Notes under the pieces: model-generated
What the model was told of the DNA's origin: nothing
What the model saw: the letters and a program-made list of their open reading frames with translations, nothing else
Database searches by the model: none
Translations under genes and position numbers: made by a program
Shown here: in pieces, positions 2,260 through 37,564 of the stretch
Layout: every line of letters begins with the position of its first letter
Numbering within the stretch: the stretch's first letter is position 1
IMG/VR virus record: IMGVR_UViG_2695420705_000025
Length of the DNA stretch: 37,564 nt
DNA from: a virus
Taxonomy: Duplodnaviria; Heunggongvirae; Uroviricota; Caudoviricetes
Direction: 5' to 3' (one strand)

Positions 2260-3198
2260 ATGAATATTTCCGATATTCGCGCAGGACTGCGCACGCTTGT
2301 AGAAAATGAAGAAACCACCTTTAAACAAATTGCTCTTGAGAGCGGACTTTCTACCGGAACTATCAGTAGTTTTATCAATGATAAGTACAACGGGGATAAC
2401 GAGCGTGTTTCACAAATGCTGCAACGCTGGCTGGAAAAATATCATGCAGTTGCAGAACTACCTGAACCGCCCCGCTTTGTGGAAACGCAGACGGTAAAAC
2501 AAATCTGGACAAGTATGCGTTTTGCCAGCCTGACTGAAAGTATTGCTGTTGTATGTGGCAATCCTGGTGTGGGCAAAACCGAAGCGGCCCGTGAATATCG
2601 CCGCACCAATAACAATGTCTGGATGATCACCATTACGCCATCCTGTGCCAGCGTTCTGGAATGTCTTACTGAACTGGCGTTTGAGCTGGGAATGAATGAC
2701 GCACCACGCCGTAAAGGGCCGCTCTCCCGCGCCCTGCGACGTCGCCTTGAAGGTACACAGGGGCTGGTTATCATCGACGAAGCTGATCATCTTGGTGCCG
2801 AAGTTCTGGAAGAACTCCGCCTGTTACAGGAATCAACCCGTATTGGCCTTGTGCTGATGGGAAATCACCGGGTTTATTCAAATATGACGGGGGGTAACAG
2901 AACGGTTGAATTTGCCCGTCTGTTTTCCCGTATTGCAAAGCGCACTGCAATTAATAAAACCAAAAAAGCCGATGTAAAAGCTATTGCGGATGCCTGGCAG
3001 ATTAACGGCGAAAAAGAACTGGAGTTATTACAGCAGATTGCGCAGAAACCAGGTGCGCTTCGCATTCTGAATCATTCACTTCGCCTTGCAGCCATGACGG
3101 CTCACGGTAAAGGTGAGCGTGTTAACGAAGATTATCTGCGTCAGGCTTTCCGTGAATTAGACCTGGACGTTGATATTTCAACGCTGCTGCGTAATTAA
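2260..3198 (+). CDS. B: MuB ATP-dependent target DNA activator
   Basis: 312 aa with Walker A motif GNPGVGKTE and Walker B-like VIIDEADHL; recognised as MuB; position directly after A. Confidence 0.95.
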   Translation: MNISDIRAGLRTLVENEETTFKQIALESGLSTGTISSFINDKYNGDNERVSQMLQRWLEKYHAVAELPEPPRFVETQTVKQIWTSMRFASLTESIAVVCGNPGVGKTEAAREYRRTNNNVWMITITPSCASVLECLTELAFELGMNDAPRRKGPLSRALRRRLEGTQGLVIIDEADHLGAEVLEELRLLQESTRIGLVLMGNHRVYSNMTGGNRTVEFARLFSRIAKRTAINKTKKADVKAIADAWQINGEKELELLQQIAQKPGALRILNHSLRLAAMTAHGKGERVNEDYLRQAFRELDLDVDISTLLRN

Positions 3199-3213: not shown

Positions 3214-3441
3214 ATGATGGCCCGAAATATAAAAATGGCAACGGATGCGCAGAACTGGTTACAGGCGCGCGGGAGTCATGTAAATGAATCATATCTCGGC
3301 GTGGCGCGTCCGATTCTTGAAATCACTTACCCACCGGTGGAACTGGTAAAAAACGCGGTCAGAATTATGGAGCATAAATCCGGAGTTGCCCGTTCTGTAT
3401 GGACGGCCCGTCTTAATGGTTGCCAGATTATCTGGAGATAA
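3214..3441 (+). CDS. kil: Kil host-killing protein (small early protein)
   Basis: 75-aa ORF immediately downstream of B, the position of Mu kil; GAAGGAGAAG Shine-Dalgarno upstream. Confidence 0.7.
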
Positions 3442-3443
3442 CG

Positions 3444-3674
3444 ATGTGTATTAAAGCTGAAAAATATATTGAATGGGTTAAACACTGTCAGTGCCACGGG
3501 GTGCCGCTGACGACATATAAATGCCCCGGATGTGGTGAACAGATTATGACGCAATGCTCACCCGAAAAGGAAATTCGGGATTCCATGACATGTTGTCCGT
3601 GGTGCAGCGCAGTTTTCTTTAAACAGGTAAAAGGCGCGAAGGTAAAAGCCAGCGCGGTTATTCAGAATCAATAA
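3444..3674 (+). CDS. Small Cys-rich Zn-ribbon protein, early accessory region, function unknown
   Basis: Start chosen at the ATG at 3444 with a GGAGAT SD 5-6 nt upstream (the track ORF starts at 3420 and overlaps kil). Contains HCQCH, CPGC and CCPWC cysteine clusters. Confidence 0.6.
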   Translation: MCIKAEKYIEWVKHCQCHGVPLTTYKCPGCGEQIMTQCSPEKEIRDSMTCCPWCSAVFFKQVKGAKVKASAVIQNQ

Positions 3675-3685
3675 GGTGAAACAAA

Positions 3686-3949
3686 ATGGCAAAAGTAATT
3701 ATTGAAATTAAAAATACAGTATCTGGAATTAAAGGACGGAATTTGCGCACCAGCATTGCGGTGGACGGTAGTGCGGAACTGGACGGTGATGAGGGTACAC
3801 TTGCTGGCATGGTGGCGTTACTGGTGCTTAATAAAAGCCAGAAAGTAATTAATGAGTCAGCCCATGAAGCTATTGAGATTTTGAAAAACGATGGTGTCAT
3901 CACCGGTGGCCGTGTCACTGAAATGGCTGTTGAAAAAACATGCCACTGA
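3686..3949 (+). CDS. Hypothetical early protein (87 aa)
   Basis: ORF with AAGGTGA SD; colinear with the early operon. Confidence 0.55.
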   Translation: MAKVIIEIKNTVSGIKGRNLRTSIAVDGSAELDGDEGTLAGMVALLVLNKSQKVINESAHEAIEILKNDGVITGGRVTEMAVEKTCH

Positions 3950-3963
3950 AAGGAACGCTGACA

Positions 3964-4383
3964 ATGAACGTCAAAATCCGAAATGAAATTCAGGCATTAA
4001 TCCGAATTCAGGAACGCAATAACAACGGTGGTGAATTACGCGAGTTTATTTGCGCCCGGAAAGTTGATGGTTATGGTGAAAAGACTTACCTAATTACTTT
4101 CGACCATTACAGCATCTGTGCGCGTTATTGTGGCGAAAGCATATCCCGCGCCATTGCGTCTGGCGATGCGTTTAACGTGGATTTATGGGAGTACGTCATG
4201 GACCGTGAATACATCTGTGTATCAGACCCGAAAGCCCGTGATATGTGGCAGCGTATCTGGCGCGATTACCGGTTAATGGCAAAAGGCTGGGCGCGCTGCT
4301 GTTATTCCTCGCTTGCCCTGAAAGCAGTTCAGTTATCGCTGCGGCATATTCCGGCATCACTGCGCGAGCCTCTGTTGTACTGA
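3964..4383 (+). CDS. Hypothetical early protein (about 139 aa)
   Basis: Track ORF 3940-4383; internal ATG at 3964 is preceded by an AAAGGAA SD and is preferred as start. Confidence 0.55.
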   Translation: MNVKIRNEIQALIRIQERNNNGGELREFICARKVDGYGEKTYLITFDHYSICARYCGESISRAIASGDAFNVDLWEYVMDREYICVSDPKARDMWQRIWRDYRLMAKGWARCCYSSLALKAVQLSLRHIPASLREPLLY

Positions 4384-4683
4384 ATGGTGGCTGACATGAA
4401 GTGTAATCGTAAGCGCTGGTCACGCGAAGACCGGGAATTTATCGAAGCCAACGTCGGGAAAATGACCGTTGAAGAAATGGCGGAAAAACTGAAAGTCGCC
4501 ACAACCGCCCTCCGGGCACATGCCAGAAGGCACGGAATATCATTGTGTATATACCGAATCAGTGAGCACGACAAATATTTGTGTCGTGAACTTTATAAAG
4601 AAGGGCTGGATATTCATGTCATTGCCCGAAAGATGGAATTAAGCAATCGTGCTGTATCCAGCATTGTATACAGCGGATATTAA
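4384..4683 (+). CDS. Hypothetical early protein with two helix-turn-helix-like segments
   Basis: 99-aa ORF (alternative start at 4399, MKCNRKRW). Predicted helical DNA-binding-like segments by eye; not verified. Confidence 0.5.
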   Translation: MVADMKCNRKRWSREDREFIEANVGKMTVEEMAEKLKVATTALRAHARRHGISLCIYRISEHDKYLCRELYKEGLDIHVIARKMELSNRAVSSIVYSGY

Positions 4684-4702
4684 TTAACAGGAGCTTTAAT
4701 TT

Positions 4703-5227
4703 ATGGCTAAACCAGCAAAACGCATCAAAAGTGCCGCAGCGGCTTATGTGCCACAAAACCGCGATGCGGTGATTACCGATATTAAACGCATCGGGGATTT
4801 ACAGCGCGAAGCATCACGTCTGGAAACGGAAATGAATGATGCCATCGCGGAAATTACGGAGAAATTTGCGGCCCGGATTGCACCGATTAAAACCGATATT
4901 GAAACCCTTTCAAAAGGCGTTCAGGGATGGTGTGAAGCGAACCGCGACGAACTGACGAACGGCGGCAAAGTGAAGACGGCAAATCTTGTCACCGGCGATG
5001 TGTCATGGCGTCAACGCCCGCCATCAGTGAGTATTCGCGGCGTGGATGCCGTAATGGAAACGCTGGAGCGTCTTGGCCTGCAACGCTTTATTCGCACGAA
5101 GCAGGAAATCAACAAGGAGGCGATTTTACTGGAACCAAAAGCCGTCGCAGGTGTTGCCGGAATTACGGTTAAATCGGGAATTGAAGATTTTTCCATTATT
5201 CCGTTTGAACAGGAAGCAGGTATTTAA
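4703..5227 (+). CDS. gam: Gam host-nuclease inhibitor, Ku-like DNA-end binding protein
   Basis: 174 aa, MAKPAKRIKSAAAAYVPQNRDAVITDIKRIGDLQREASRLETEMNDAIAEI..., recognised as Mu Gam; AGGAG SD upstream. Confidence 0.92.
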   Translation: MAKPAKRIKSAAAAYVPQNRDAVITDIKRIGDLQREASRLETEMNDAIAEITEKFAARIAPIKTDIETLSKGVQGWCEANRDELTNGGKVKTANLVTGDVSWRQRPPSVSIRGVDAVMETLERLGLQRFIRTKQEINKEAILLEPKAVAGVAGITVKSGIEDFSIIPFEQEAGI

Positions 5228-5325
5228 TACCACCATTAATATTTAATTAATTCACATTCTTTTAATTATGGCGCGATGCGTCAGGGGATTGCTCGCGCCT
5301 GAAACAGATTACTGAGGAATAAAAC

Positions 5326-5856
5326 ATGGTTGATGCAAAAATTCTGAATGGTGTCAGCACATTATTACGGGCTTACGGACGCCTGACCTGCGGGGTTCTG
5401 GCTGAAAAAATGCAGATGCCATCCTCCGCAATGGTGTACTTCCTGCGTGATGCGGTTGATGCCGGAATGCTGACTGAACTTAATGGTTTTTACGACGTAC
5501 CGCGTCCCCGTACAGAGCAGCCTGTAAGACGAAACGCAACTGAGCAGTCTGCTGTTGATGATGCCGCGTGGTGTTCCTTCCGCCGCCCATTGCCCTGGCT
5601 GGAAGGCAATGCCATTCCGGCACTGGCAAAAGAATTTGCAACAGGCGTGCTGACCTGTGAATCCGTTCACATCGTTGCAGAAGTGGACAACAGAATGTGC
5701 GAACAGGGAATGCCCCGTTTTGTGATGGCTTATATCGATATCCGGCTGGGGCGTTTTATTTGCAGTTCCAGCGCCTGGAATATCACCGACCATGTACTGC
5801 GTTATCTCATTCTTGATTGTTCTCCGGCTCCCGCAGCGGTGCAGGAGGTGGCGTGA
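5326..5856 (+). CDS. Hypothetical early protein (176 aa)
   Basis: ORF with GAGGAA SD; lies in the gam-to-gemA semi-essential block. Confidence 0.6.
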   Translation: MVDAKILNGVSTLLRAYGRLTCGVLAEKMQMPSSAMVYFLRDAVDAGMLTELNGFYDVPRPRTEQPVRRNATEQSAVDDAAWCSFRRPLPWLEGNAIPALAKEFATGVLTCESVHIVAEVDNRMCEQGMPRFVMAYIDIRLGRFICSSSAWNITDHVLRYLILDCSPAPAAVQEVA

Positions 5857-6386
5857 TGTTTTTTAAAACGTCAAATCCCACAGCACTGCTGGCATGGGAC
5901 CAGTTTATGGCGGACTGCCTGAAACTACGCGAAGAAGCCCGCCATCTTGATAAGGTTCTGGACTGTGGTTGCCGGTCAGTATTCAGTACAGGTATTGGTG
6001 GGCGTCATTTTCATGGTGTGAATTTTCCGGGGAATGAGCGCCCCTTCTCGCGGGAGCTGTGGACCGTACAACGGCCCGCATCAGGTAACAGTTGCAGGCC
6101 CAGAACTTCGTGGATACCTGCTCATCTCAGGGGGCAGGCAAGAGAGCTGGCGAAAATATGGCAGGAGAATATTCCGGTCACTTACGCCCGCACAGACGCT
6201 CTTTTACCCGCACTGGGACTGGATTTCAGCGCAACAATATTCGGGCCGCTCCAGTGGTTCCGTGTTGGTGATGTGATTTACGTCATGACGGGGATGACAC
6301 CCGCGCAAGGCCGCATGACTGAAATCCTTTCTGACGAATTTATCCGGGCGCAAAAACAGGCGGAGGTAACTAATGGAAAACAGTGA
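5856..6386 (+). CDS. Hypothetical early protein (about 176 aa)
   Basis: Start taken at the ATG at 5856 (MFFKTSNPTALLAW...), overlapping the upstream stop as GTGATG and preceded by an AGGAGG SD; the track ORF begins at 5817. Confidence 0.55.
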   Translation: MFFKTSNPTALLAWDQFMADCLKLREEARHLDKVLDCGCRSVFSTGIGGRHFHGVNFPGNERPFSRELWTVQRPASGNSCRPRTSWIPAHLRGQARELAKIWQENIPVTYARTDALLPALGLDFSATIFGPLQWFRVGDVIYVMTGMTPAQGRMTEILSDEFIRAQKQAEVTNGKQ

Positions 6387-6555
6387 AACATCGTATTCGT
6401 GGCTGGGGAAATTTACCACGGTGAAACAGGAATGCCCGACCTGCGGTAATGAATCCCCTGAATATCTGAAAGAGTGCCCTCATTGTGGCGGGCAGAAATG
6501 CAACCACTGTGATATGGGCGATGACACGGCGTGCATGAATTGTGAAGGTGAGTGA
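6373..6555 (+). CDS. Small Zn-ribbon protein (four CxxC motifs)
   Basis: 60 aa with CPTC, CPHC, CNHC and CMNC; GGAGGT SD upstream. Confidence 0.6.
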   Translation: MENSETSYSWLGKFTTVKQECPTCGNESPEYLKECPHCGGQKCNHCDMGDDTACMNCEGE

Positions 6556-6556
6556 T

Positions 6557-6865
6557 ATGAATAATGGTGTATTTTCAAAATCAGAAGAGCTTGCCGCCCT
6601 GCTGATTGCCGGTGGTTTGCCGAAAAAAGAAGTGCATGACTTTGTGAATTTTGTATATGAGACGTCTCATGAAAAAGCTATTGATGAGGTCATGGCGTAC
6701 CGGTTTGGCATTATTGCTGAGTCACTGAGTCCTCACTGGATTATTGAAAATCTCCGCGCTATTGCTGATGGCAACGATAAATCAGCAGCCGTTGCTGCAC
6801 TGGATGTGTTACGGCAAATGAGTCTGAAATTTTATCCTGAATTTATTCTGAGGGCCGCAAAATGA
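6557..6865 (+). CDS. Hypothetical early protein (about 102 aa)
   Basis: ATG at 6557 preceded by a GAAGGTGAG SD; the track ORF starts at 6542. Confidence 0.55.
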   Translation: MNNGVFSKSEELAALLIAGGLPKKEVHDFVNFVYETSHEKAIDEVMAYRFGIIAESLSPHWIIENLRAIADGNDKSAAVAALDVLRQMSLKFYPEFILRAAK

Positions 6866-7164
6866 ACAATGAAGATAAATTTACTCCCCTTAATATTGAT
6901 AACGTCATGGCTGAAAAAGGGATGCTGGAACGTGTTCGCGCTATCGTTGAATATGGTATTAAGCATAATCTCACCGCCAGAGAAGTCCGTGACATTATCA
7001 ACCGCGAAATGAATCGTCTGGAAACAGTAGTGGCACTGCAAAATGAAACAGCCCGCGAGGAGTACATCCGCCGCAGGCTGGGGTTATCAGACCAGGATAT
7101 TGTTACTGACGCTCATGTGTTTGAGGCTTTTGAGATCCGTCAGCATCTGGGTCTAACGAACTGA
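6862..7164 (+). CDS. Hypothetical early protein (100 aa)
   Basis: ORF overlapping the upstream stop (ATGA); last + strand ORF before the gemA upstream gap. Confidence 0.5.
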   Translation: MNNEDKFTPLNIDNVMAEKGMLERVRAIVEYGIKHNLTAREVRDIINREMNRLETVVALQNETAREEYIRRRLGLSDQDIVTDAHVFEAFEIRQHLGLTN

Positions 7165-7369
7165 TAATGTCTTCCATGATCTTTGACAGTTGCATGTTTT
7201 CGCGGCGGCTTGTTCTTATTGCAGGCGCATCTTTTAAAATCTCTGCTGAAGAGCTGAAAATGGCCTGGCCCTCTTCTGCGGTGATGATCGCCTTCTTCAC
7301 CAGAAGGCGCACCAGTGCTGATGCAATCGCATAACCTGCAACATCATAAGGTTGTACATTATTTTCCAT
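7103..7369 (-). CDS. Candidate minus-strand small protein (88 aa), function unknown
   Basis: The only sizeable minus-strand ORF in the otherwise unidirectional early region. It covers most of a 274-bp stretch (7165-7438) with no + strand ORF of 60 aa or more, and has a GAGAGGA SD 4 nt upstream of its ATG. Its 3' end overlaps the 6862-7164 ORF by 62 nt. Confidence 0.35.
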   Translation of the reverse strand: MENNVQPYDVAGYAIASALVRLLVKKAIITAEEGQAIFSSSAEILKDAPAIRTSRRENMQLSKIMEDIISSLDPDADGSQKPQTHERQ

Positions 7370-7399
7370 AAAATCCTCTCTGATTGATGTGTAAATTCA

Positions 7400-7426
7400 G
7401 GCGGTGTTGCAGCACCGCCTCTTTCC
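7400..7426 (+). promoter_or_regulatory. GC hairpin just upstream of the gemA RBS (possible attenuator)
   Basis: GGCGGTG-TTGCAG-CACCGCC stem-loop followed by TCTTTCC, directly 5' of the GGAGG SD of gemA. Confidence 0.3.
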
Positions 7427-7438
7427 GGAGGTACGATC

Positions 7439-7990
7439 ATGAATCGCACATCCCTGATTAAATTAATCCATGTCGCCCGTCGGGAGCTACAACTCGACGA
7501 CGACACTTACCGAGCTTTTCTGATGCAGAAAACGGGCAAAATCAGTTGCCGCGAGCTGACGGTTACGCAACTGGAACAGGTGCTCGATGCCATGAAAGAA
7601 CGCGGCTTTAAGAAGCTGAATAAACATCCACGTCGCCGCTTTAAGGGGCATGTCACGCCCCGCGAGAAGGTATACAAAGTCTGGCAGCAGATGGCAGAAG
7701 ACGGTTTTATTACCGATGGCGGTGATGTGGCGCTGGATAAATATGTTCAGCGCCTGACGGCGAAACGTAATGGCGGACAGGGTGTTTCCACGCTGGCGTG
7801 GTGTCATGGCGACACCCTGTTGATTGTTCTCGAAACTCTCAAGCAGTGGCATATCCGCTGTATTCGTGAAGCCTTTTCCCGTCACGGGCTTCCGTTGCCA
7901 GTCAGTCCGTCCGGGCGTGAACTGCGCGGCTATGATGCCATGACGGCGGCTTATGCCCATGCCAGAAAGACACGGAGGATGGCACAATGA
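7439..7990 (+). CDS. gemA: GemA (host gene expression modulation protein)
   Basis: 183 aa, MNRTSLIKLIHVARRELQLDDDTYRAFLMQKTGK..., recognised as Mu GemA; immediately precedes mor. Confidence 0.85.
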   Translation: MNRTSLIKLIHVARRELQLDDDTYRAFLMQKTGKISCRELTVTQLEQVLDAMKERGFKKLNKHPRRRFKGHVTPREKVYKVWQQMAEDGFITDGGDVALDKYVQRLTAKRNGGQGVSTLAWCHGDTLLIVLETLKQWHIRCIREAFSRHGLPLPVSPSGRELRGYDAMTAAYAHARKTRRMAQ

Positions 7991-8376: not shown

Positions 8377-8383
8377 ACAGTAA

Positions 8384-8407
8384 AGCCGGTTAATCCGGCT
8401 TTTTTTA
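8384..8407 (+). terminator. Rho-independent terminator after mor (end of early transcript)
   Basis: AGCCGG-TTAAT-CCGGCT hairpin followed by TTTTTTT, 8 nt after the mor stop. Confidence 0.8.
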
Positions 8408-29051: not shown

Positions 29052-30134
29052 ATGGCTTATTCACCACCGACATTATCATCGCTGATTGCCCGTACAGAAC
29101 AGAATATTGAACAGCGCCTGCCGGGTAGCTGGCCTCAGGCCCGTGAAAAAACGCTGAGTGCCATTGCTTATGCTCAGGCGGGCCTTGCTGCCGGTTGTCA
29201 CGAGCATATTTCATGGGTTGGACGGCAGATTATCCCGTCGACAGCAGATGAAGATGAGTTGCTGGAGCACTGCCGGTTCTGGGGCGTGCGCCGCAAACAG
29301 GCGACAGCCGCCAGCGGCCCGCTGACTGTCACCACATCGGCAGCGACCACCATTCCTGCCGGTACACGCTGGCAGCGTGCTGATGGTGTGGTTTACAGCC
29401 TGGCTGATGCCATTGTGATTGACCGTGCAGGAACGACGGAAATTACCGTTACCGCACTGGCTGCCGGTGAAGCAGGAAATACCGGTGAGAATACCCTTTT
29501 AACGTTGATCACCCCGGTTGCCTGTGTTGTTTCCGATGCCATCACTGTAAAAGGGTTTTCCGGTGGGGCTGATATTGAGAGTGCAGCGGAGCTGCTGTCA
29601 CGGCTGGAATATCGTGTCCAGTATCCTCCGTTCGGCGGTAATCAGTTTGATTATGTTCGCTGGGCGCGTGAAGTCAGCGGCGTTACCCGTGCCTGGTGTT
29701 TTCCGACATGGAAAGGCGGTGGCACAGTCGGGGTGACGTTTGTTATGGATAACCGGAGCAATATTTTTCCACAACCGGCAGACGTGGAACGCGTGGCGGA
29801 TTATATCGCCGGTCATACTGACCCGATCACCGGTCTGATTGTCGGACAGCCTGACGGTGTAAATGTCACTGTATTTGCGCCAAAGGCAAAGCCGGTAAAT
29901 CCACGGATTTATATATCACCGAAGACAGCCGAACTGAAACAGGCTATTACCCACGCCATTAATACCATGTTTTTTAATGAGGTGACGCCGGGCGGCGCAC
30001 TTGCCCCCTCCCGTATTATCCGTGCGGTGGCAGGTGTTACCGGTCTGGATGATTTTGAAGTGCGTTTCCCGACAGAGATCCAGCGTTCGGAGAATACGGA
30101 ACTGTTAACACCGGGGACAATTGAATGGCTGTAA
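29052..30134 (+). CDS. Baseplate J-like protein (gp47-like)
   Basis: 360 aa; position and size match the baseplate J family member of Mu. Confidence 0.75.
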   Translation: MAYSPPTLSSLIARTEQNIEQRLPGSWPQAREKTLSAIAYAQAGLAAGCHEHISWVGRQIIPSTADEDELLEHCRFWGVRRKQATAASGPLTVTTSAATTIPAGTRWQRADGVVYSLADAIVIDRAGTTEITVTALAAGEAGNTGENTLLTLITPVACVVSDAITVKGFSGGADIESAAELLSRLEYRVQYPPFGGNQFDYVRWAREVSGVTRAWCFPTWKGGGTVGVTFVMDNRSNIFPQPADVERVADYIAGHTDPITGLIVGQPDGVNVTVFAPKAKPVNPRIYISPKTAELKQAITHAINTMFFNEVTPGGALAPSRIIRAVAGVTGLDDFEVRFPTEIQRSENTELLTPGTIEWL

Positions 30135-30667
30135 CACCCTATCAGACGGCCTTTCTGCAATTACTGCCGTCAGGGCTTGCCTGGAATAAAAGCCCCGACA
30201 GCAAATTATCTGCGCTGGCGCAGGCCATCAGCGACGTGATTGCCACTGCGGCGGATGATGCGCGGCAAATGCTGCGGGAGCGTTTCCCGTCCACATCCCG
30301 CTGGTATCTGGGGGGGTGGGAATCATTTCTGGGGTTGCCGGACTGTACCAGCGAAAACGGCACCCTGTCCGAACGCCAGCGGGCTGCCGCGAATAAAATG
30401 CGTATGACCGGCAATCTGAGTCGGCGCTTTTATGAATGGCTGGCTGCGCAGTACGGTTTTACCGTCAGGCTGACGGATTCCACAGAAGGCCAGTGGGTTA
30501 CGCAGGTCAATATTTACGGTATTAAAAATTATCGCAACGCAACGGTGCTGGATAATGTTCTGACGCCGTTACGTGTTTATGAATCGGGTGCGCTGGAATG
30601 TTTACTGGAGAAATATAAACCCGCGCATCAGATTTATAAATTTGTTTACCATGACGGAGATAACTAA
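30125..30667 (+). CDS. Tail protein gp48-like (baseplate / fibre attachment)
   Basis: 180 aa immediately upstream of the tail fibre gene. Confidence 0.7.
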   Translation: MAVTPYQTAFLQLLPSGLAWNKSPDSKLSALAQAISDVIATAADDARQMLRERFPSTSRWYLGGWESFLGLPDCTSENGTLSERQRAAANKMRMTGNLSRRFYEWLAAQYGFTVRLTDSTEGQWVTQVNIYGIKNYRNATVLDNVLTPLRVYESGALECLLEKYKPAHQIYKFVYHDGDN

Positions 30668-32022
30668 TGTTTTATATTGATAACGACAGCGGCGTAACCG
30701 TCATGCCGCCCGTATCCGCCCAGCGTAGTGCTATCGTTCGCTGGTTTTCAGAAGGTGACGGGAATAATGTTATCACATGGCCCGGCATGGACTGGTTTAA
30801 TATTGTGCAGGCGGAGTTATTAAACACGCTGGAAGAAGCCGGTATTCAACCGGATAAAACAAAATTAAACCAGCTTGCACTATCCATTAAAGCCATTATG
30901 AGCAATAACGCACTGCTGATAAAAAATAACCTCAGCGAAATTAAAACTGCCGGGGCATCAGCACAGCGTACAGCACGTGAAAATCTGGATATTTATGATG
31001 CCAGCCTGAACAAAAAAGGACTCGTTCAGCTAACCAGTGCCACTGACAGCCCCAGTGAAACGCTGGCAGCCACCGCAAAAGCGGTGAAAATTGCGATGGA
31101 TAATGCCAGTGCCCGTCTGGCAAAAGACCGGAACGGAGCAGATATTCCCAATAAGCCGCTGTTTATCCAAAACCTCGGTTTACAGGAAACGGTAAACAAG
31201 GCTGGTAACGCTGTTCAGCGTTCTGGCGATACAATGACCGGAAAACTGAATCTACCACAGACATCTGCATTCGGCGTTGATACCGATAATGCACTGGGTG
31301 GTAATTCCATTACTCTCGGAGATAACGACACTGGTATTAAACAGGGCGGAGACGGTGTCCTTTTATTCTATTCAAATGGACAACTGGCATTTGGGCTTCA
31401 ACCCGCATCTGCTGATTTTTATAAGCGGGTTGCATACATTCCTCAGGGAATAATTCCTGATGGAAGTGGCGCATTTGCAGACCAGTTGAATAATGCCACC
31501 GCGCCTTTTGTTCAGACGCAGTTTGCCTGGAATCCCACTCCTGGTGGTCATTACGTGCCGATAGTTAAGGGCTTGTCCATTCGCAATGGACAGGGCTATC
31601 CCGGCGCGGTCAGCTTTGGTTATTTGCTGACAGAACAGTATGGATTTCCGGTTCCATGTATTCATATGCGTGGCGATGGCGGTAATGATGCTTTATGGCA
31701 GTTTAACCCGAACGATAAATCTTTTATTTCACCGGGTGCTCTTGTTGCGGGTGGCATCATTTATAACACCGATGGAAATATATTTGGCGGGTGTTGGGGT
31801 TCAAATTTAGCTGATTATCTCAATAGCACATATGTAAGAGACATTCGACTTGGTAGCGCAGAATCAATATCAGCATGGCGAGGCCCTGGTTACTGGGATA
31901 CTTCTGGATATGTTCTGACCGCAGCCGGAAACAGCAACACCGATGAATTTATTGATACATTAACCAGAAGGCCTATTCAGAAGTTGATTGGTGGGACATA
32001 TTATAACGTTGTGAGTATTTGA
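30667..32022 (+). CDS. S: Tail fibre protein S (constant Sc part fused to the variable part currently in expressing orientation)
   Basis: 451 aa. The constant N-terminal part runs to the left gix repeat (about 31167); the variable part lies inside the invertible segment. Confidence 0.88.
31167..31203. repeat. gixL, left inverted repeat / Gin recombination site of the G segment
   Basis: CCAAAACCTCGGTTTACAGGAAACGGTAAAC is the near-perfect reverse complement of 34340-34375 (two or three mismatches); lies inside S at the constant/variable junction (encodes LGLQETVN). Confidence 0.85.
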
Positions 32023-32023
32023 C

Positions 32024-32551
32024 ATGATGCATTTAAAAAACATTAAAGCAGGGAACCCCAAAACACCTGAACAATACCAGTTAACCAAAAAAGCTGGAGT
32101 GGTCTGGCTTTATACTGAAGATGGTAAAAACTGGTACGAAGAACAAAAAAACTTTCAACCAGATACTATAAAAATTGCATACGATAAAAATAATGTGATT
32201 GTTACCGTAAGCAAAGATGTTTCAACTATTAACCCGGAAGGTTTAAGTGTTGTTGAAGTATCCGATATTACGGCAAATCGTCGCGCAGACAATAACGGAA
32301 ACTGGATGTTTCTGGATGGTAAAGTAGTAAAGCGGGAATATACAAAACAGGAGCTGCAACAGCAGGCAGAGTTACAAAAAGCCGCTTTGCTTTCCGAAGC
32401 GGAGTCTGTGATTCAACCGCTGGAACGTGCTGTCAGGCTGAATATGGCAACTAATGAGGAACGCGCACGACTGGAGTCATGGGAACGCTACAGTGTTCTG
32501 GTCAGCCGTGTGGATACGGCAAATCCTGAATGGCCACAAAAGCCTGAATAA
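32024..32551 (+). CDS. U: Tail fibre assembly protein U
   Basis: 175 aa directly after S; paralogous to the minus-strand 177-aa ORF (both start [11 protein letters not shown]...). Confidence 0.88.
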
Positions 32552-32556
32552 AAATT

Positions 32557-32576
32557 AAGGCCCGATAGCGGGCCTT
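32557..32576. terminator. Bidirectional hairpin between convergent U and U'
   Basis: AAGGCCCG-ATAG-CGGGCCTT stem-loop in the 28-bp gap between the convergent stop codons. Confidence 0.55.
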
Positions 32577-32579
32577 GTC

Positions 32580-33113
32580 TCATTCTGGTTGTTCCGGGAA
32601 TGTTACAGGAAGAACAGAGGTATCTGTGGCATCAACCTGCTGCATGTATAACATCCAGTTAATGAGTCTTTGCCTGTCTGAATCGCTGATAATTCCCAGC
32701 GCAAGCTGTGTTTGCCAGCACTGCGTTTCCTCTCTGGCCTGTCGCAGCAAAATCTGTTTCTGAATTTCAGCCAGTTGACGTAGTTCTTCATCAGTCCGGG
32801 GGCGTTTCATGACCTTGCCATCCTGAAACACCCAGTCACCGAGAATATCGGCCCGGCGATTCGCTGTCGTGTCGGGTAATTCGACAACGCTCATTCCTTC
32901 CGGGTTAATAGACGACACATCTTTTTCAATATAGCGAATGATACCTCTGTCATCGTAAGCGATTTTTAGTGTGTCTGCCTGAAAGGCTTTTTGTGCCTCA
33001 TACCAGTTCTTACCATCTTCAGCGTAAAGCCAGATAACTCCGTGTTTCTTTGTTAACTCATACTGTTCCAGTGTTTTAGCGTTACCCGCTTTTATGTTCT
33101 TTAAGTGCATCAT
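32580..33113 (-). CDS. U': Tail fibre assembly protein U' (alternative, currently non-expressed orientation)
   Basis: 177 aa on the minus strand, paralogous to U; follows S' on the minus strand. Confidence 0.85.
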   Translation of the reverse strand: MMHLKNIKAGNAKTLEQYELTKKHGVIWLYAEDGKNWYEAQKAFQADTLKIAYDDRGIIRYIEKDVSSINPEGMSVVELPDTTANRRADILGDWVFQDGKVMKRPRTDEELRQLAEIQKQILLRQAREETQCWQTQLALGIISDSDRQRLINWMLYMQQVDATDTSVLPVTFPEQPE

Positions 33114-33114
33114 A

Positions 33115-34362
33115 TTAAACGCTCGCTACATTATACCAGGTGCCATTTATATACTTTTGAACGGGTCTGTAATAAACGCCCGCTATATTATCGGCAGAGT
33201 TGGACCCTGTATCCTGAACATTAATACCAGACAATACATGACCTGACGGGCACTGGAAATTCCATGTTTGCCAGTTGTTCACACCATGATATTGCTGTGA
33301 ACCAAGACGAACATCTTTCACATAGCGGGAATCAAAATTCCCCCAGTTGCTGGGTTGTATCTGACCGTTAACAGCAAATATCACCGAGTTATCTGTATTT
33401 CGCTGACTATAGAAATGCCAGCCTGAATCATCACCAAGCTCTGCAACAGTTGGTCTTGACGAATTTCCCCACAAGCTAAATGATGCATTACGGGCAGCGG
33501 TATTTGCACTTGAAAGTGTGAAGAACTTACTTTCCCCAGCCTGAATACCCTTTAATGATCTTGCTGAACCATTTATAAAGCGGAATACATGCACACCATT
33601 AGCATAAGCATCCAGCACCCCATCACCATTTTGTTTAAACCCGGTATCGTTATCTCCTAAAACTATTGAATTTCCACCCAGGGCATTAGCCGTTCCAATC
33701 CCCAGATTTCCGCTAAAAATGGCATTAATACCGAGTATTGAGTGAGAACAATAAAACCCTCGCCCATTGTTAAAATCCAGAATGGCTTGTGCGTTCGTGC
33801 TTTCTGTCGCGGGATTAGTTGCTCCCCACTTATATGTTGTTTGACCGACAGTATAATCCTGAGTTGGAACAATAACCGTTAGCCCTTCTTCAGCAGAAAC
33901 CCGCACAGGAAAAGCCCTGCCTTCAACGTAAAAAACGCTGCATACATCATCTTCTTTAAGGCTTGTTACAATGGAATGGATTGCGCGCTCATTAGTCTGA
34001 TACGTCGAAAAATAACCTGCCGCATATGAACCACGATCAGTCCAGCCACCAGGCATTACCATTCCATTGAATTCGCAGTTATTCATTGCGTAATCACTAC
34101 TGGCACATGTGGTCGTTATAATCACTCTGGAAGCCAGCTCGCCAGTGCCGCCTGTGGAACGCCGGAAAATAACTGGATACCACTTTCCACCAATTGCATT
34201 AGACGGCGCATTAAATGCGTACTGCCGCATTCCTTTTTTCTTATCCACCTCGCCTTTGCTGTAAACATTAATGTTACTCAGGAAGCGATCCTTATCAGGA
34301 ATATCCGCGCCGTTCTGGTTTTTCTGTAATGCGCCAGAAGCCTGATTTACCGTTTCCTGCAA
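33115..34362 (-). CDS. S': Sv', alternative variable tail fibre domain; startless ORF that opens at gixR
   Basis: Minus-strand ORF whose first codons (LQETVN) are encoded by the gix repeat; the in-frame codon upstream is TAA and the apparent start is TTG. So it has no start of its own and is expressed only after inversion fuses it to Sc. Shares the motif [22 protein letters not shown] with S. Confidence 0.85.
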   Translation of the reverse strand: MQETVNQASGALQKNQNGADIPDKDRFLSNINVYSKGEVDKKKGMRQYAFNAPSNAIGGKWYPVIFRRSTGGTGELASRVIITTTCASSDYAMNNCEFNGMVMPGGWTDRGSYAAGYFSTYQTNERAIHSIVTSLKEDDVCSVFYVEGRAFPVRVSAEEGLTVIVPTQDYTVGQTTYKWGATNPATESTNAQAILDFNNGRGFYCSHSILGINAIFSGNLGIGTANALGGNSIVLGDNDTGFKQNGDGVLDAYANGVHVFRFINGSARSLKGIQAGESKFFTLSSANTAARNASFSLWGNSSRPTVAELGDDSGWHFYSQRNTDNSVIFAVNGQIQPSNWGNFDSRYVKDVRLGSQQYHGVNNWQTWNFQCPSGHVLSGINVQDTGSNSADNIAGVYYRPVQKYINGTWYNVASV

Positions 34363-34375
34363 ACCGAGGTTTTAG
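34340..34375. repeat. gixR, right inverted repeat / Gin recombination site of the G segment
   Basis: Reverse complement matches gixL; located 59 bp upstream of the gin start. Confidence 0.85.
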
Positions 34376-34433
34376 ATAATGGCTGTTTCCGGCCTGCATG
34401 GCATGATTTGCGCTTTTAAACGGGAGATCCAGA

Positions 34434-35027
34434 GTGCTGATTGGCTATGTAAGGGTATCAACAAATGACCAGAATACAGACCTGCAACGAAACGCTCTTG
34501 TTTGTGCAGGATGTGAACAAATATTTGAAGATAAATTAAGCGGAACAAGGACAGACAGACCTGGATTAAAACGCGCTTTAAAGCGCCTTCAAAAAGGTGA
34601 CACACTTGTTGTCTGGAAACTGGATCGCCTCGGGCGAAGCATGAAACATTTGATTTCTCTCGTAGGGGAATTACGAGAGCGAGGGATTAATTTTCGCAGT
34701 CTTACTGACAGTATTGATACGTCATCTCCAATGGGGCGTTTTTTCTTCCACGTTATGGGTGCCCTGGCTGAGATGGAACGAGAACTAATCATCGAGCGAA
34801 CGATGGCTGGACTTGCTGCCGCCAGAAATAAAGGCCGTATTGGTGGGCGACCACCTAAACTAACCAAAGCGGAATGGGAGCAGGCCGGGCGTTTATTAGC
34901 ACAAGGAATCCCCCGCAAGCAGGTTGCATTGATCTACGATGTGGCCCTGTCAACTCTGTATAAAAAACACCCCGCGAAACGAACGCATATAGAAAACGAC
35001 GATCGAATCAATCAAATCGATCGGTAA
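34434..35027 (+). CDS. gin: Gin serine recombinase (DNA invertase), copy 1
   Basis: 197 aa from a GTG start, MLIGYVRVSTNDQNTDLQRNALVCAGCEQIF... with catalytic serine in VRVST; recognised as Mu Gin. Confidence 0.92.
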   Translation: MLIGYVRVSTNDQNTDLQRNALVCAGCEQIFEDKLSGTRTDRPGLKRALKRLQKGDTLVVWKLDRLGRSMKHLISLVGELRERGINFRSLTDSIDTSSPMGRFFFHVMGALAEMERELIIERTMAGLAAARNKGRIGGRPPKLTKAEWEQAGRLLAQGIPRKQVALIYDVALSTLYKKHPAKRTHIENDDRINQIDR

Positions 35028-35035
35028 TACAGATC
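35001..35035. promoter_or_regulatory. Cluster of three GATC (Dam) sites, mom upstream regulatory region, copy 1
   Basis: GATC at 35001, 35019 and 35032, overlapping the gin 3' end and upstream of com. Mu mom is known to be controlled by Dam methylation and OxyR binding at three upstream GATC sites. Confidence 0.6.
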
Positions 35036-35109
35036 GATTATGTCTCAATAACCACACTCAACCCATGATGTTTTTTAAGATAGTGGCGAATTGATGCAAA
35101 GGAGGTGAG

Positions 35110-35280
35110 ATGAAATCAATTCGCTGTAAAAACTGCAACAAACTGTTATTTAAGGCGGATTCCTTTGATCACATTGAAATCAGGTGTCCGCGTTGCAAAC
35201 GTCACATCATAATGCTGAATGCCTGCGAGCATCCCATGGAGAAACATTGTGGGAAAAGAGAAAAAATCACGATCTCCTAA
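35110..35280 (+). CDS. com: Com-like translational activator, C-terminally altered copy created by the duplication junction (56 aa)
   Basis: Identical to com through codon 54 (zinc-finger cysteines intact), then reads IS-stop across the junction at 35271/35272 instead of HSDETVRY-stop. No mom gene follows this copy. Confidence 0.6.
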   Translation: MKSIRCKNCNKLLFKADSFDHIEIRCPRCKRHIIMLNACEHPMEKHCGKREKITIS

Positions 35281-35982
35281 AACTATTGAATTTCCACCCA
35301 GGGCATTAGCCGTTCCAATCCCCAGATTTCCGCTAAAAATGGCATTAATACCGAGTATTGAGTGAGAACAATAAAACCCTCGCCCATTGTTAAAATCCAG
35401 AATGGCTTGTGCGTTCGTGCTTTCTGTCGCGGGATTAGTTGCTCCCCACTTATATGTTGTTTGACCGACAGTATAATCCTGAGTTGGAACAATAACCGTT
35501 AGCCCTTCTTCAGCAGAAACCCGCACAGGAAAAGCCCTGCCTTCAACGTAAAAAACGCTGCATACATCATCTTCTTTAAGGCTTGTTACAATGGAATGGA
35601 TTGCGCGCTCATTAGTCTGATACGTCGAAAAATAACCTGCCGCATATGAACCACGATCAGTCCAGCCACCAGGCATTACCATTCCATTGAATTCGCAGTT
35701 ATTCATTGCGTAATCACTACTGGCACATGTGGTCGTTATAATCACTCTGGAAGCCAGCTCGCCAGTGCCGCCTGTGGAACGCCGGAAAATAACTGGATAC
35801 CACTTTCCACCAATTGCATTAGACGGCGCATTAAATGCGTACTGCCGCATTCCTTTTTTCTTATCCACCTCGCCTTTGCTGTAAACATTAATGTTACTCA
35901 GGAAGCGATCCTTATCAGGAATATCCGCGCCGTTCTGGTTTTTCTGTAATGCGCCAGAAGCCTGATTTACCGTTTCCTGCAA
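35272..35982 (-). pseudogene. Truncated second copy of the Sv' 5' region (N-terminal 237 codons)
   Basis: Exact copy of 33652-34362; the reading frame continues into junction-derived sequence (track ORF 35146-35982). Confidence 0.8.
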
Positions 35983-35995
35983 ACCGAGGTTTTAG
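35960..35995. repeat. Third gix site (duplicate of gixR), in direct orientation to gixR and inverted relative to gixL
   Basis: Identical to 34340-34375 at an offset of 1620 bp. Confidence 0.85.
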
Positions 35996-36053
35996 ATAAT
36001 GGCTGTTTCCGGCCTGCATGGCATGATTTGCGCTTTTAAACGGGAGATCCAGA

Positions 36054-36647
36054 GTGCTGATTGGCTATGTAAGGGTATCAACAAATGACCAGAATACAGA
36101 CCTGCAACGAAACGCTCTTGTTTGTGCAGGATGTGAACAAATATTTGAAGATAAATTAAGCGGAACAAGGACAGACAGACCTGGATTAAAACGCGCTTTA
36201 AAGCGCCTTCAAAAAGGTGACACACTTGTTGTCTGGAAACTGGATCGCCTCGGGCGAAGCATGAAACATTTGATTTCTCTCGTAGGGGAATTACGAGAGC
36301 GAGGGATTAATTTTCGCAGTCTTACTGACAGTATTGATACGTCATCTCCAATGGGGCGTTTTTTCTTCCACGTTATGGGTGCCCTGGCTGAGATGGAACG
36401 AGAACTAATCATCGAGCGAACGATGGCTGGACTTGCTGCCGCCAGAAATAAAGGCCGTATTGGTGGGCGACCACCTAAACTAACCAAAGCGGAATGGGAG
36501 CAGGCCGGGCGTTTATTAGCACAAGGAATCCCCCGCAAGCAGGTTGCATTGATCTACGATGTGGCCCTGTCAACTCTGTATAAAAAACACCCCGCGAAAC
36601 GAACGCATATAGAAAACGACGATCGAATCAATCAAATCGATCGGTAA
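36054..36647 (+). CDS. gin: Gin serine recombinase (DNA invertase), copy 2
   Basis: Identical to the 34434-35027 copy. Confidence 0.92.
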   Translation: MLIGYVRVSTNDQNTDLQRNALVCAGCEQIFEDKLSGTRTDRPGLKRALKRLQKGDTLVVWKLDRLGRSMKHLISLVGELRERGINFRSLTDSIDTSSPMGRFFFHVMGALAEMERELIIERTMAGLAAARNKGRIGGRPPKLTKAEWEQAGRLLAQGIPRKQVALIYDVALSTLYKKHPAKRTHIENDDRINQIDR

Positions 36648-36655
36648 TACAGATC
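36621..36655. promoter_or_regulatory. Cluster of three GATC (Dam) sites, mom upstream regulatory region, copy 2 (the one actually upstream of com-mom)
   Basis: Same sequence as 35001-35035 at an offset of 1620 bp. Confidence 0.6.
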
Positions 36656-36729
36656 GATTATGTCTCAATAACCACACTCAACCCATGATGTTTTTTAAGA
36701 TAGTGGCGAATTGATGCAAAGGAGGTGAG

Positions 36730-36918
36730 ATGAAATCAATTCGCTGTAAAAACTGCAACAAACTGTTATTTAAGGCGGATTCCTTTGATCACATTGAAAT
36801 CAGGTGTCCGCGTTGCAAACGTCACATCATAATGCTGAATGCCTGCGAGCATCCCATGGAGAAACATTGTGGGAAAAGAGAAAAAATCACGCATTCTGAC
36901 GAAACCGTGCGTTATTGA
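36730..36918 (+). CDS. com: Com, zinc-finger translational activator of mom
   Basis: 62 aa, [62 protein letters not shown], with CxxC...CxxC zinc finger; overlaps the mom start. Confidence 0.9.
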
Positions 36919-37564
36919 GTATGAAGGCCAGATTGTTGGCTATGGTTCAAAGGAGCTGCGCGTTGAAACCATATCTTGCTGGCTGGCCCGCACAATTATT
37001 CAGACAAAGCACTATTCCCGCCGTTTTGTGAATAACTCTTACCTCCACCTGGGAGTATTCAGCGGACGCGATCTGGTTGGCGTTCTCCAGTGGGGATATG
37101 CCCTTAACCCCAACTCAGGTCGTCGTGTCGTGCTTGAAACGGATAACCGGGGCTATATGGAGTTGAACCGCATGTGGCTACACGACGACATGCCCCGCAA
37201 CTCTGAATCACGGGCCATCAGTTATGCACTGAAAACCATAAGGTTACTGTATCCGTCAGTGGAGTGGGTTCAGTCTTTTGCAGACGAACGCTGCGGACGT
37301 GCTGGCGTTGTGTATCAGGCGTCAAATTTTGATTTTATTGGCAGCCATGAAAGCACGTTCTACGAGCTGGATGGTGAGTGGTATCACGAGATAACGATGA
37401 ACGCGATTAAACGCGGTGGACAACGAGGCGTGTATTTACGGGCTAATAAAGAGCGTGCCGTGGTGCACAAATTTAATCAGTATCGCTACATCAGGTTCCT
37501 GAACAAGCGAGCAAGGAAGCGACTAAATACCAAGCTATTCAAGGTTCAGCCATACCCTAAGTGA
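36839..37564 (+). CDS. mom: Mom DNA modification enzyme (adenine carbamoylmethylation, anti-restriction)
   Basis: 241-aa ORF starting inside com and ending at the last base of the window; recognised as Mu Mom. The exact start codon may be downstream of 36839. Confidence 0.88.

Follow-up and report, generated by a model that had tools for sequence, protein, structure and literature searches.

What does the run of small genes between gene B and gemA do for a Mu-like phage? The question is raised by positions 3214-7164 of IMG/VR record IMGVR_UViG_2695420705_000025, a 37,564-nucleotide (nt) stretch of Caudoviricetes DNA that we refer to, at its full length, as the window. An earlier note on this DNA had counted about eleven small open reading frames (ORFs) here, and we found exactly 11 on the plus strand. 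The window opens at ner, the repressor, the operator and the left end lying outside it; its first genes code for Mu-like Ner, transposase A and the AAA+ protein B, and it nearly reaches the right end (G segment, gin, mom). As judged both from the ORF map and from the annotations of Mu, SfMu and D108, the block is placed between B and gemA/mor on the strand of ner-A-B. At the DNA level the block shares 96.1% identity with Escherichia phage Mu across 93% of its length and 92.6% with Shigella phage SfMu at 100% coverage; D108 and the Yersinia vB_YpM phages cover 79-94% of it, and a related stretch is present in about 90 of 5,426 complete E. coli genomes. Gene for gene and in the same order, the ORFs match Mup05-Mup14 of Mu, kil and gam included, the exception being a gene that we call orfX, and by tblastn 10 of the 11 are 90-100% identical to the Mu proteins. 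From the synteny with Mup05-Mup14 and the match to a published deletion, we conclude that 3214-7164 very probably represents the early semi-essential (SE) region of a transposable prophage in the Mu family (Muvirus); the earlier note had likewise spoken of the semi-essential region of Mu-like phages.

In Mu, the SE region belongs to a long early transcript along with A and B, and the delta-SE deletion, which removes Mu nt 4,319-7,954, is equivalent to positions 3214-7164 of the window (Jang, Sandler and Harshey 2012, PMC3325207). After MuBam infection, deletion of the SE region lifted host viability and the recovery of lysogens to 100%, and because host viability was restored in this way the region is taken to encode host-lethal functions (PMC3325207). 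The present block would form the distal part of such a long early operon, in which an early promoter upstream of the window is followed by ner, A and B, and its 11 genes would be translated from one polycistronic mRNA as tightly spaced or overlapping cistrons, each led by its own Shine-Dalgarno sequence. A Shine-Dalgarno sequence indeed precedes all 11 plus-strand ORFs, and the gene junctions range from -14 to +19 nt, with a 98-nt gap after gam (5228-5325) as the sole exception. In our scan, nothing on the plus strand inside the block resembled a promoter, and a single strong plus-strand terminator was located, directly after mor (8382-8402); the two results fit a single early transcript. The features of the block and its neighbours are listed below (aa, amino acids).

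2260-3198, plus strand: B, left neighbour of the block, on the same strand as ner-A-B.
3214-3441, plus strand: kil (Mu gp5; also cim), 75 aa, basic; host-killing and cell-morphology protein.
3444-3674, plus strand: gp6 (Mu E5), 76 aa, net charge +4; predicted zinc-ribbon protein; variable cassette.
3686-3949, plus strand: gp7 (Mu E6/Mup07), the same as Gnarl2, 87 aa; variable cassette.
3964-4383, plus strand: gp8 (Mu E7), 139 aa orphan in most relatives; phrog_3690.
4384-4683, plus strand: gp9 (Mu E8), tandem helix-turn-helix protein in every relative compared.
4703-5227, plus strand: gam (Mu gp10), Ku-like DNA-end-binding inhibitor of host nuclease.
5228-5312, plus strand: conserved non-coding element with an AT-rich tract, a hairpin and TGAA.
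5326-5856, plus strand: gp11 (Mu E10-12), 176 aa; Gp11_C; in every relative compared.
5856-6386, plus strand: gp12 (Mu E13), 176 aa, predicted alpha+beta protein; variable cassette.
6373-6555, plus strand: gp13 (Mu E14), 60 aa, net charge -7; four CxxC motifs; shuffled module.
6557-6865, plus strand: orfX (gp14 of SfMu), 102 aa; variable cassette; phrog_1988, E 2.4e-49.
6862-7164, plus strand: gp14 (Mu E15), 100 aa, net charge -4; variable cassette; phrog_6075.
7103-7369, minus strand: gp15, 88 aa antisense ORF overlapping the 3' end of gp14.
7167-7334, plus strand: Mu_54-like ORF, a rival to gp15.
7439-7990, plus strand: gemA, right neighbour of the block, with mor farther downstream.

The 11 plus-strand ORFs were compared with the most diverged orthologue available for each, using the pairwise Nei-Gojobori ratio of nonsynonymous to synonymous substitution rates (dN/dS). 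The ratio was 0.09 for both kil and gam, 0.11 for gp12, 0.14 for gp11, 0.17 for gp13 and gp14, 0.18 for gp8, 0.20 for gp7, 0.24 for gp9 and 0.36 for gp6, and it reached 0.49 for orfX, the fastest evolving of the set. Values between 0.09 and 0.49 thus identify all 11 as real coding genes under purifying selection, and positive selection was not detected, the ratio staying below 0.5 throughout. Each ORF moreover matched a dedicated PHROG family, with E-values from 1e-29 to 1e-102.

Presence and absence across 12 annotated Mu-like loci sorted these genes into two groups. kil, gp9, gam and gp11 were found in 12 of 12 loci, always with gemA and mor downstream and usually with gp8, and gp6, gp7, gp12, gp13, orfX, gp14 and gp15 were present, replaced or absent from one locus to the next. 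In distant E. coli Mu-like prophages, DNA similarity was limited to gp8/gp9-gam-gp11. Among viral contigs spanning B to gemA, 16 architectures could be told apart, extending over 3,475-4,797 bp; these contigs had been chosen for carrying gp6 or gp13, and the apparent constancy of those two genes among them is biased for that reason. The window itself is a mosaic: its gp11 is 100% identical to that of D108 and hence D108-type, gp6 and gp7 are of the Mu type, and the SfMu/prophage type is seen in orfX, gp14 and gp15, all three in PHROG families of unknown function. orfX is absent from Mu and D108, 98-100% identical in SfMu, YpM5 and E. coli prophages, and 42-44% identical in a second lineage, and gp14 is 99% identical to gp14 of Mu and just 36% to that of D108, a phage in which gp14/gp15 are replaced.

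We propose that the block consists of two layers. The always-present layer (kil, gp9, gam, gp11 and mostly gp8) would probably support early takeover, DNA-end protection, regulation or replication. The second layer would be made of swappable accessory cassettes (gp6, gp7/Gnarl2, gp12, gp13, orfX, gp14 and gp15), exchanged, replaced or lost between close relatives, and would most likely supply small binders of host proteins. Sorting the genes in this way shows which of them to test first for host-interaction or anti-defence phenotypes.

Within the always-present layer, kil is 100% identical to Mu Kil and belongs to phrog_2743 (E 2.8e-43), which carries the label 'Kil protein for bacterial septation inhibition', and the curated Mu record AF083977 adds that it is 'also known as cim', where cim stands for control of immunity; its start may be read at 3214 or at 3217, giving 75 or 74 aa. 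gam is 99% identical to Mu Gam and matches Pfam PF07352 (Phage_Mu_Gam) at E 2.2e-42 over profile positions 2-148 of 149, as well as phrog_491 at E 9.5e-75. From the literature we take host killing and morphology as the probable role of kil, Ku-like end binding with protection against RecBCD as that of gam, and the toxic and dispensable nature of the block; what we say of the functions of gp6, gp8, gp9, gp11, gp12, gp13, orfX and gp14 we infer. gp9 matched phrog_323, 'transcriptional regulator, D5-like' (E 4e-29), and gave sub-threshold helix-turn-helix (HTH) and sigma-70 region 4 matches in Pfam and NCBIfam over residues 9-45 and 64-98. Its start is ambiguous between 4384 and 4396, which makes the protein 99 aa long in the RefSeq annotation of Mu and 95 aa long in the revised GenBank one. 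gp11 matched Pfam PF25754 (Gp11_C) at E 1.3e-39 over residues 90-167 and phrog_1949, and its N-terminus looks like a winged helix, a resemblance that we read off the sequence and not from a tool result. Going by these features, gp9 and gp11 look more like DNA-binding or regulatory factors than like inhibitors. gp8 is 97% identical to Mu gp8 and had just 12 representatives among 1.84 billion proteins, none of them informative; two long multi-stretch matches to it turned out to be repeat proteins and were discarded as spurious.

The gap after gam, the sole sizeable one on the plus strand, contains an 85-nt element (5228-5312) made up of an AT-rich tract, the hairpin GGCGCGA...TCGCGCC and TGAA. 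Between lineages in which the third-codon positions of gam are 71-73% identical, the element is 94-98% identical (binomial P 1e-7 to 4e-10), and its conservation ends right after the hairpin, even where a different gene lies downstream. All 16 phage records that contain the element leave it unannotated. Rfam returned no family in the whole window, nor in a permissive search around the element; the element has no T-run and no match to a promoter consensus, and its folding energy is weakly better than that of shuffled sequences (z -1.9). Obvious candidates for its function are processing, attenuation and the binding of a protein. That the element is far more conserved than the genes on either side of it is a small new point.

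These observations bear on a rival explanation, according to which most of what the block does is for the replication, transposition and regulation of the phage itself, through phenotypes of the 'arm', 'cim' and 'lig' type, its products being DNA-binding and accessory factors that enhance replicative transposition and adjust early-to-middle expression. SE genes stimulate Mu replication ('arm'), the tandem-HTH gp9 and the Gp11_C protein gp11 flank gam in every lineage compared, kil is also annotated as cim, the regulators gemA and mor lie directly downstream, and the conserved non-coding element is situated inside the always-present part of the block. Such an explanation, however, accounts neither for the fast turnover of gp6, gp7, gp12, gp13, orfX and gp14 nor for the O-antigen phenotype of gp7 described below, and SE-deleted phage was still usable in the infection experiments of Jang et al. 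(PMC3325207). We consider it a serious possibility for the block as a whole, if not one that we would back; for gp9 and gp11 in particular, a replication or regulatory role fits better than an anti-defence one.

Turning to the cassette layer of the two-layer arrangement, we found that gp7 is 98% identical over its full length of 87 aa to NP_050611.1 (Mu E6/Mup07). In a screen of 196 phage accessory genes in wild E. coli, Silas et al. named orf63 gnarl2 (Nat Commun 2025, PMC12373910; preprint 10.1101/2023.04.06.535777), and the accession and coordinates in their supplement identify it as NP_050611.1, NC_000929.1 4784..5047, that is, Mu E6/Mup07 (PMC12373910). Expression of Gnarl2 shifts the O-antigen bands down in ECOR1 and ECOR22 and makes both strains 10^5-10^6-fold more sensitive to T5; according to its authors, the protein acts on a surface barrier and cannot aid the entry of its own phage (PMC12373910). 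The phenotype was measured on the Mu protein, of which gp7 of the window is, by sequence comparison, a 98% identical allele. gp7/Gnarl2 is the one cassette with an experimentally shown host effect, O-antigen alteration, published for the Mu protein, and the earlier statement that only kil and gam have known roles is outdated; most proteins of the block are, as that note said, still uncharacterised. The gp7 slot holds two deeply diverged alleles, phrog_10252 and phrog_2230, which have in common the N-terminus MAKVI and a similar length. The alternative, 89-aa allele (phrog_2230) was located at L004:2973-3242, L005:1973-2242 and L013:4191-4460, L numbers denoting the loci compared; its Pfam match to RraB (E 0.0098) was below the cutoff, and the allele of the window gave no such match.

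The two cysteine-rich proteins of the block had been described as Zn-ribbon proteins, and their motifs lie where the earlier note had placed them. gp6 has cysteines at C15/C17 (HCQCH), C27/C30 (CPGC) and C50/C51/C54 (CCPWC). Comparison with seven homologue clusters showed that only C27, C50, C51 and C54 are invariant; C30 is kept in seven of eight sequences and is a tyrosine in one Salmonella cluster, and HCQCH reads RVQNNN in SfMu-type alleles. The part of the claim that fails is thus HCQCH, which, not being conserved, is no conserved metal site. An AlphaFold2 (AF2) model of gp6, built on the homologue alignment, reached a predicted local distance difference test score (pLDDT) of 89.8 and a predicted template-modelling score (pTM) of 0.72, and comprised one helix at the N-terminus and then five strands, CPGC lying in the turn between strands 1 and 2 and CCPWC in that between strands 3 and 4. 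Since both CxxC knuckles sit in beta-hairpin turns of the model (C27/C30 between strands 22-26 and 33-37, C51/C54 between 44-50 and 57-63), the layout would be that of a zinc ribbon, and 47 of the 53 residues of LysW could be superposed on it at 2.4 A. gp6 may be likened to a range of small zinc-ribbon proteins, namely LysW, MasE, the sarcosine oxidase delta subunit, ZitP and the N-terminal ribbon of NrdR. Matches of gp6 to ECs_2282 and FmdB were below the Pfam and NCBIfam cut-offs.

gp13 carries its four CxxC motifs within 37 residues, at 21-24, 35-38, 43-46 and 54-57. Six cysteines and the sequence CDMGDD are invariant, and the first CxxC is gone in one variant only, so the claim of four retained motifs stands. 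The conserved core comprises residues ~20-60, and because forms of 46-52 aa exist the N-terminal ~19 residues are dispensable. Across 43 viral loci (L015-L057), at least five unrelated genes (gp12, gp11 and members of three other families) lie immediately upstream of this core, whose start overlaps or abuts their stop by -14, -11, -8, -4 or 0 nt. In four loci (L030-L032 and L034) the core is the C-terminal part of an in-frame fusion with a sixth, 129-aa family, a fusion that corresponds to the 231-position PHROG 6418 (phrog_6418). Being placed beside or fused to six different partners, gp13 is no partner dedicated to gp12 but an autonomous cassette, coupled in its translation to the preceding gene. 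Several candidate assignments were rejected: DnaJ_CXXCXGXG (PF00684), at 19.2 bits against a gathering threshold of 32.7; the double zinc ribbon (PF12773), at 16.2 bits against 27.3; and the Lar restriction alleviation protein (NCBIfam TIGR03655), at 14.9 bits against 39.6, with no stretch of gp13 passing. Weak gp13 matches in viral contigs of 80-150 kb are no relatives: they fall on anaerobic ribonucleotide reductase, in its C-terminal zinc ribbon.

On these data gp6 would be a single zinc ribbon of basic charge, as modelled, and gp13 a modular, acidic two-zinc protein-binding module with eight cysteines. In the cell, gp13 would be an acidic eight-cysteine module of ~40 residues, most likely holding two zinc ions and translated off the end of the preceding gene; as an acidic, autonomous cassette that couples to any preceding gene, it more likely binds proteins, as an adaptor or inhibitor, than nucleic acids. 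Both proteins are real, conserved and lineage-restricted: gp6 was represented by seven clusters and gp13 by 14, all of them from Escherichia or Salmonella, with no annotated domain among the gp13 clusters.

The remaining cassettes show similar replacement. In two E. coli prophages the gp6 slot is occupied by an unrelated 70-aa ORF with one cysteine (phrog_3375). A DUF5420-type gene of 182-192 aa directly follows the conserved element, ahead of gp11, with intact gp12 absent, in SfMu, YpM3 and the E. coli prophage LR882057, as follows.

L002:3605-4159, L006:3612-4160 and L014:5402-5980: DUF5420-type insert in SfMu, YpM3 and the E. coli prophage.

The homologue of gp12 in SfMu is truncated and unannotated. 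gp12 gave a confident AF2 model, whose fold matched a 182-aa viral protein in BFVD at a TM-score (template-modelling score) of 0.74, and was rejected as a DUF5420 relative by profile-profile comparison (hhalign probability 4.2%). gp6, gp13, gp8 and gp12 are narrowly distributed, and no informative relatives were found for them, so that their function can be learned only by experiment.

The second rival explanation regards the block chiefly as an anti-defence island in which most of the small proteins, the zinc pair especially, inhibit restriction, abortive infection or nucleases. Gam counters RecBCD, and gp7/Gnarl2 came out of a counter-defence screen (PMC12373910). The presence/absence and allelic turnover of the cassettes are typical of arms-race genes, the highest dN/dS values belong to gp6 (0.36) and orfX (0.49), and gp13 is small, acidic, modular and weakly Lar-like. 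However, no ORF reached the threshold for a known anti-defence family in the Pfam and NCBIfam scans, the Lar and DnaJ-type scores of gp13 given above included; none of the ten unknown ORFs had a significant match among the PADLOC defence models, where only spurious ones at E 0.0097 or above appeared; and the ten unknown proteins, searched by sequence in concatenated form against PDB chains, gave nothing below E 0.49. Furthermore, Gnarl2 acts on a surface barrier and, per its authors, gives no help to the entry of its own phage, and in the part of the supplements of that screen available to us Mup07 is the sole hit from Mu (PMC12373910). All dN/dS values are below 0.5 with no positive selection detected, and gp9 and gp11 resemble DNA-binding proteins. 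As an account of the whole block we find the anti-defence explanation doubtful. For the cassette layer it is plausible, with direct support limited to Gam and Gnarl2, and for the zinc proteins an anti-defence role would be pure inference. The earlier view of the region as a seat of host takeover and anti-defence therefore holds in so far as Gam protects ends, gp7 is Gnarl2 and the SE region is host-lethal, but not as regards matches to known defence or anti-defence families. Structure prediction, run on gp6 and gp12, yielded confident models with no informative solved-structure relative.

A joint proposal would hold that the cassettes, gp13 and gp6 in particular, are unrecognised metal-stabilised inhibitors of host immunity or repair proteins and, at the same time, that the 85-nt element sets the ratio of expression between always-present and accessory genes as an RNA processing or attenuation site; taken together, we think this unlikely. 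The idea that not all of the small ORFs are genes, some being frames open by chance or remnants in decay, prompted by several ORFs of less than 90 aa without a function, by the truncated gp12 homologue of SfMu and by annotation that has been revised here (gp15 versus Mu_54), is highly improbable and for the 11 plus-strand ORFs already largely refuted by dN/dS of at most 0.49, a Shine-Dalgarno sequence and a dedicated PHROG family in every case, and by the confident AF2 models of gp6 and gp12.

The revision just mentioned concerns the strand at the right-hand end of the block, where RefSeq Mu annotates the minus-strand gp15 and the revised GenBank record of Mu has the plus-strand, 55-aa Mu_54 instead. 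gp15 matched phrog_8747 at E 1.3e-60, and phrog_32893 was matched both by gp15 and by an unannotated minus-strand ORF in the same slot of D108 (L004:6094-6453), two proteins between which BLASTP was not significant. Mu_54 had no family match in the Pfam and PHROG searches. gp15 is preceded by its own Shine-Dalgarno sequence, GAGAGGA, and its stop is followed on the minus strand by a hairpin and a T-rich run (7080-7040), the hairpin being the terminator predicted in Mu at 7839-7873. dN/dS was uninformative, with too few substitutions on either side (one synonymous and five nonsynonymous for gp15, two and three for Mu_54). The shared phrog_32893, the Shine-Dalgarno sequence of its own, the terminator-like hairpin and the lack of a family for Mu_54 together favour an antisense gp15 unit, and gp15 looks like a real, independent antisense gene, perhaps expressed in the lysogen. 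Both the gp15 unit and the element after gam may add detail to what is understood of early gene expression in Mu.

Two further observations were made outside the block. A near-perfect palindrome, AGGCGGTGTTG/CAGCACCGCCT, lies at 7399-7420 directly upstream of the gemA ribosome-binding site, within the equivalent of the annotated semi-early promoter of Mu, and is also present in D108 despite the different upstream gene. Towards the right end of the window, positions 30000-37564 (tail fibre, G segment, gin, mom) are covered to only 55-77% by any known Mu-like phage at the megablast level, and by this low coverage the host-range region differs from those of Mu, D108 and SfMu.

Among known systems, early, small, dispensable and partly host-toxic genes likewise make up the accessory block of the lambda pL operon (gam, kil, ral and the ea genes) and, in Mu-like phages of Pseudomonas, the early regions, and the lambda block also has a nuclease inhibitor named Gam and a killing gene named Kil. 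We know of no sequence relationship between the lambda and Mu blocks beyond these names, the Ku-like Gam of Mu being unrelated to lambda Gam, and in our searches no lambda-type family was hit except through the PHROG label on kil. The closest counterpart is the SE region of Mu itself (NC_000929 / AF083977, nt 4312-7957; Mup05-Mup14, formerly kil, E5-E15 and gam), which shares position, strand and gene order with the block of the window and differs from it by one gene, orfX (6557-6865), that Mu and D108 lack. SfMu, the Yersinia vB_YpM phages and E. coli Mu-like prophages have orfX together with the same right-hand cassettes as the window, whereas a second E. coli lineage is limited to kil, the alternative gp7 allele, (gp8), gp9, gam, gp11 and two further small genes. 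Most SE genes of Mu, a model phage, have stood as "hypothetical proteins" since the 1980s. Every gene family of the block is already catalogued in Mu, SfMu, PHROGs or Pfam, and the block is therefore already known and not a new kind of system; gp13 as a shuffled module is a small new point of comparison.

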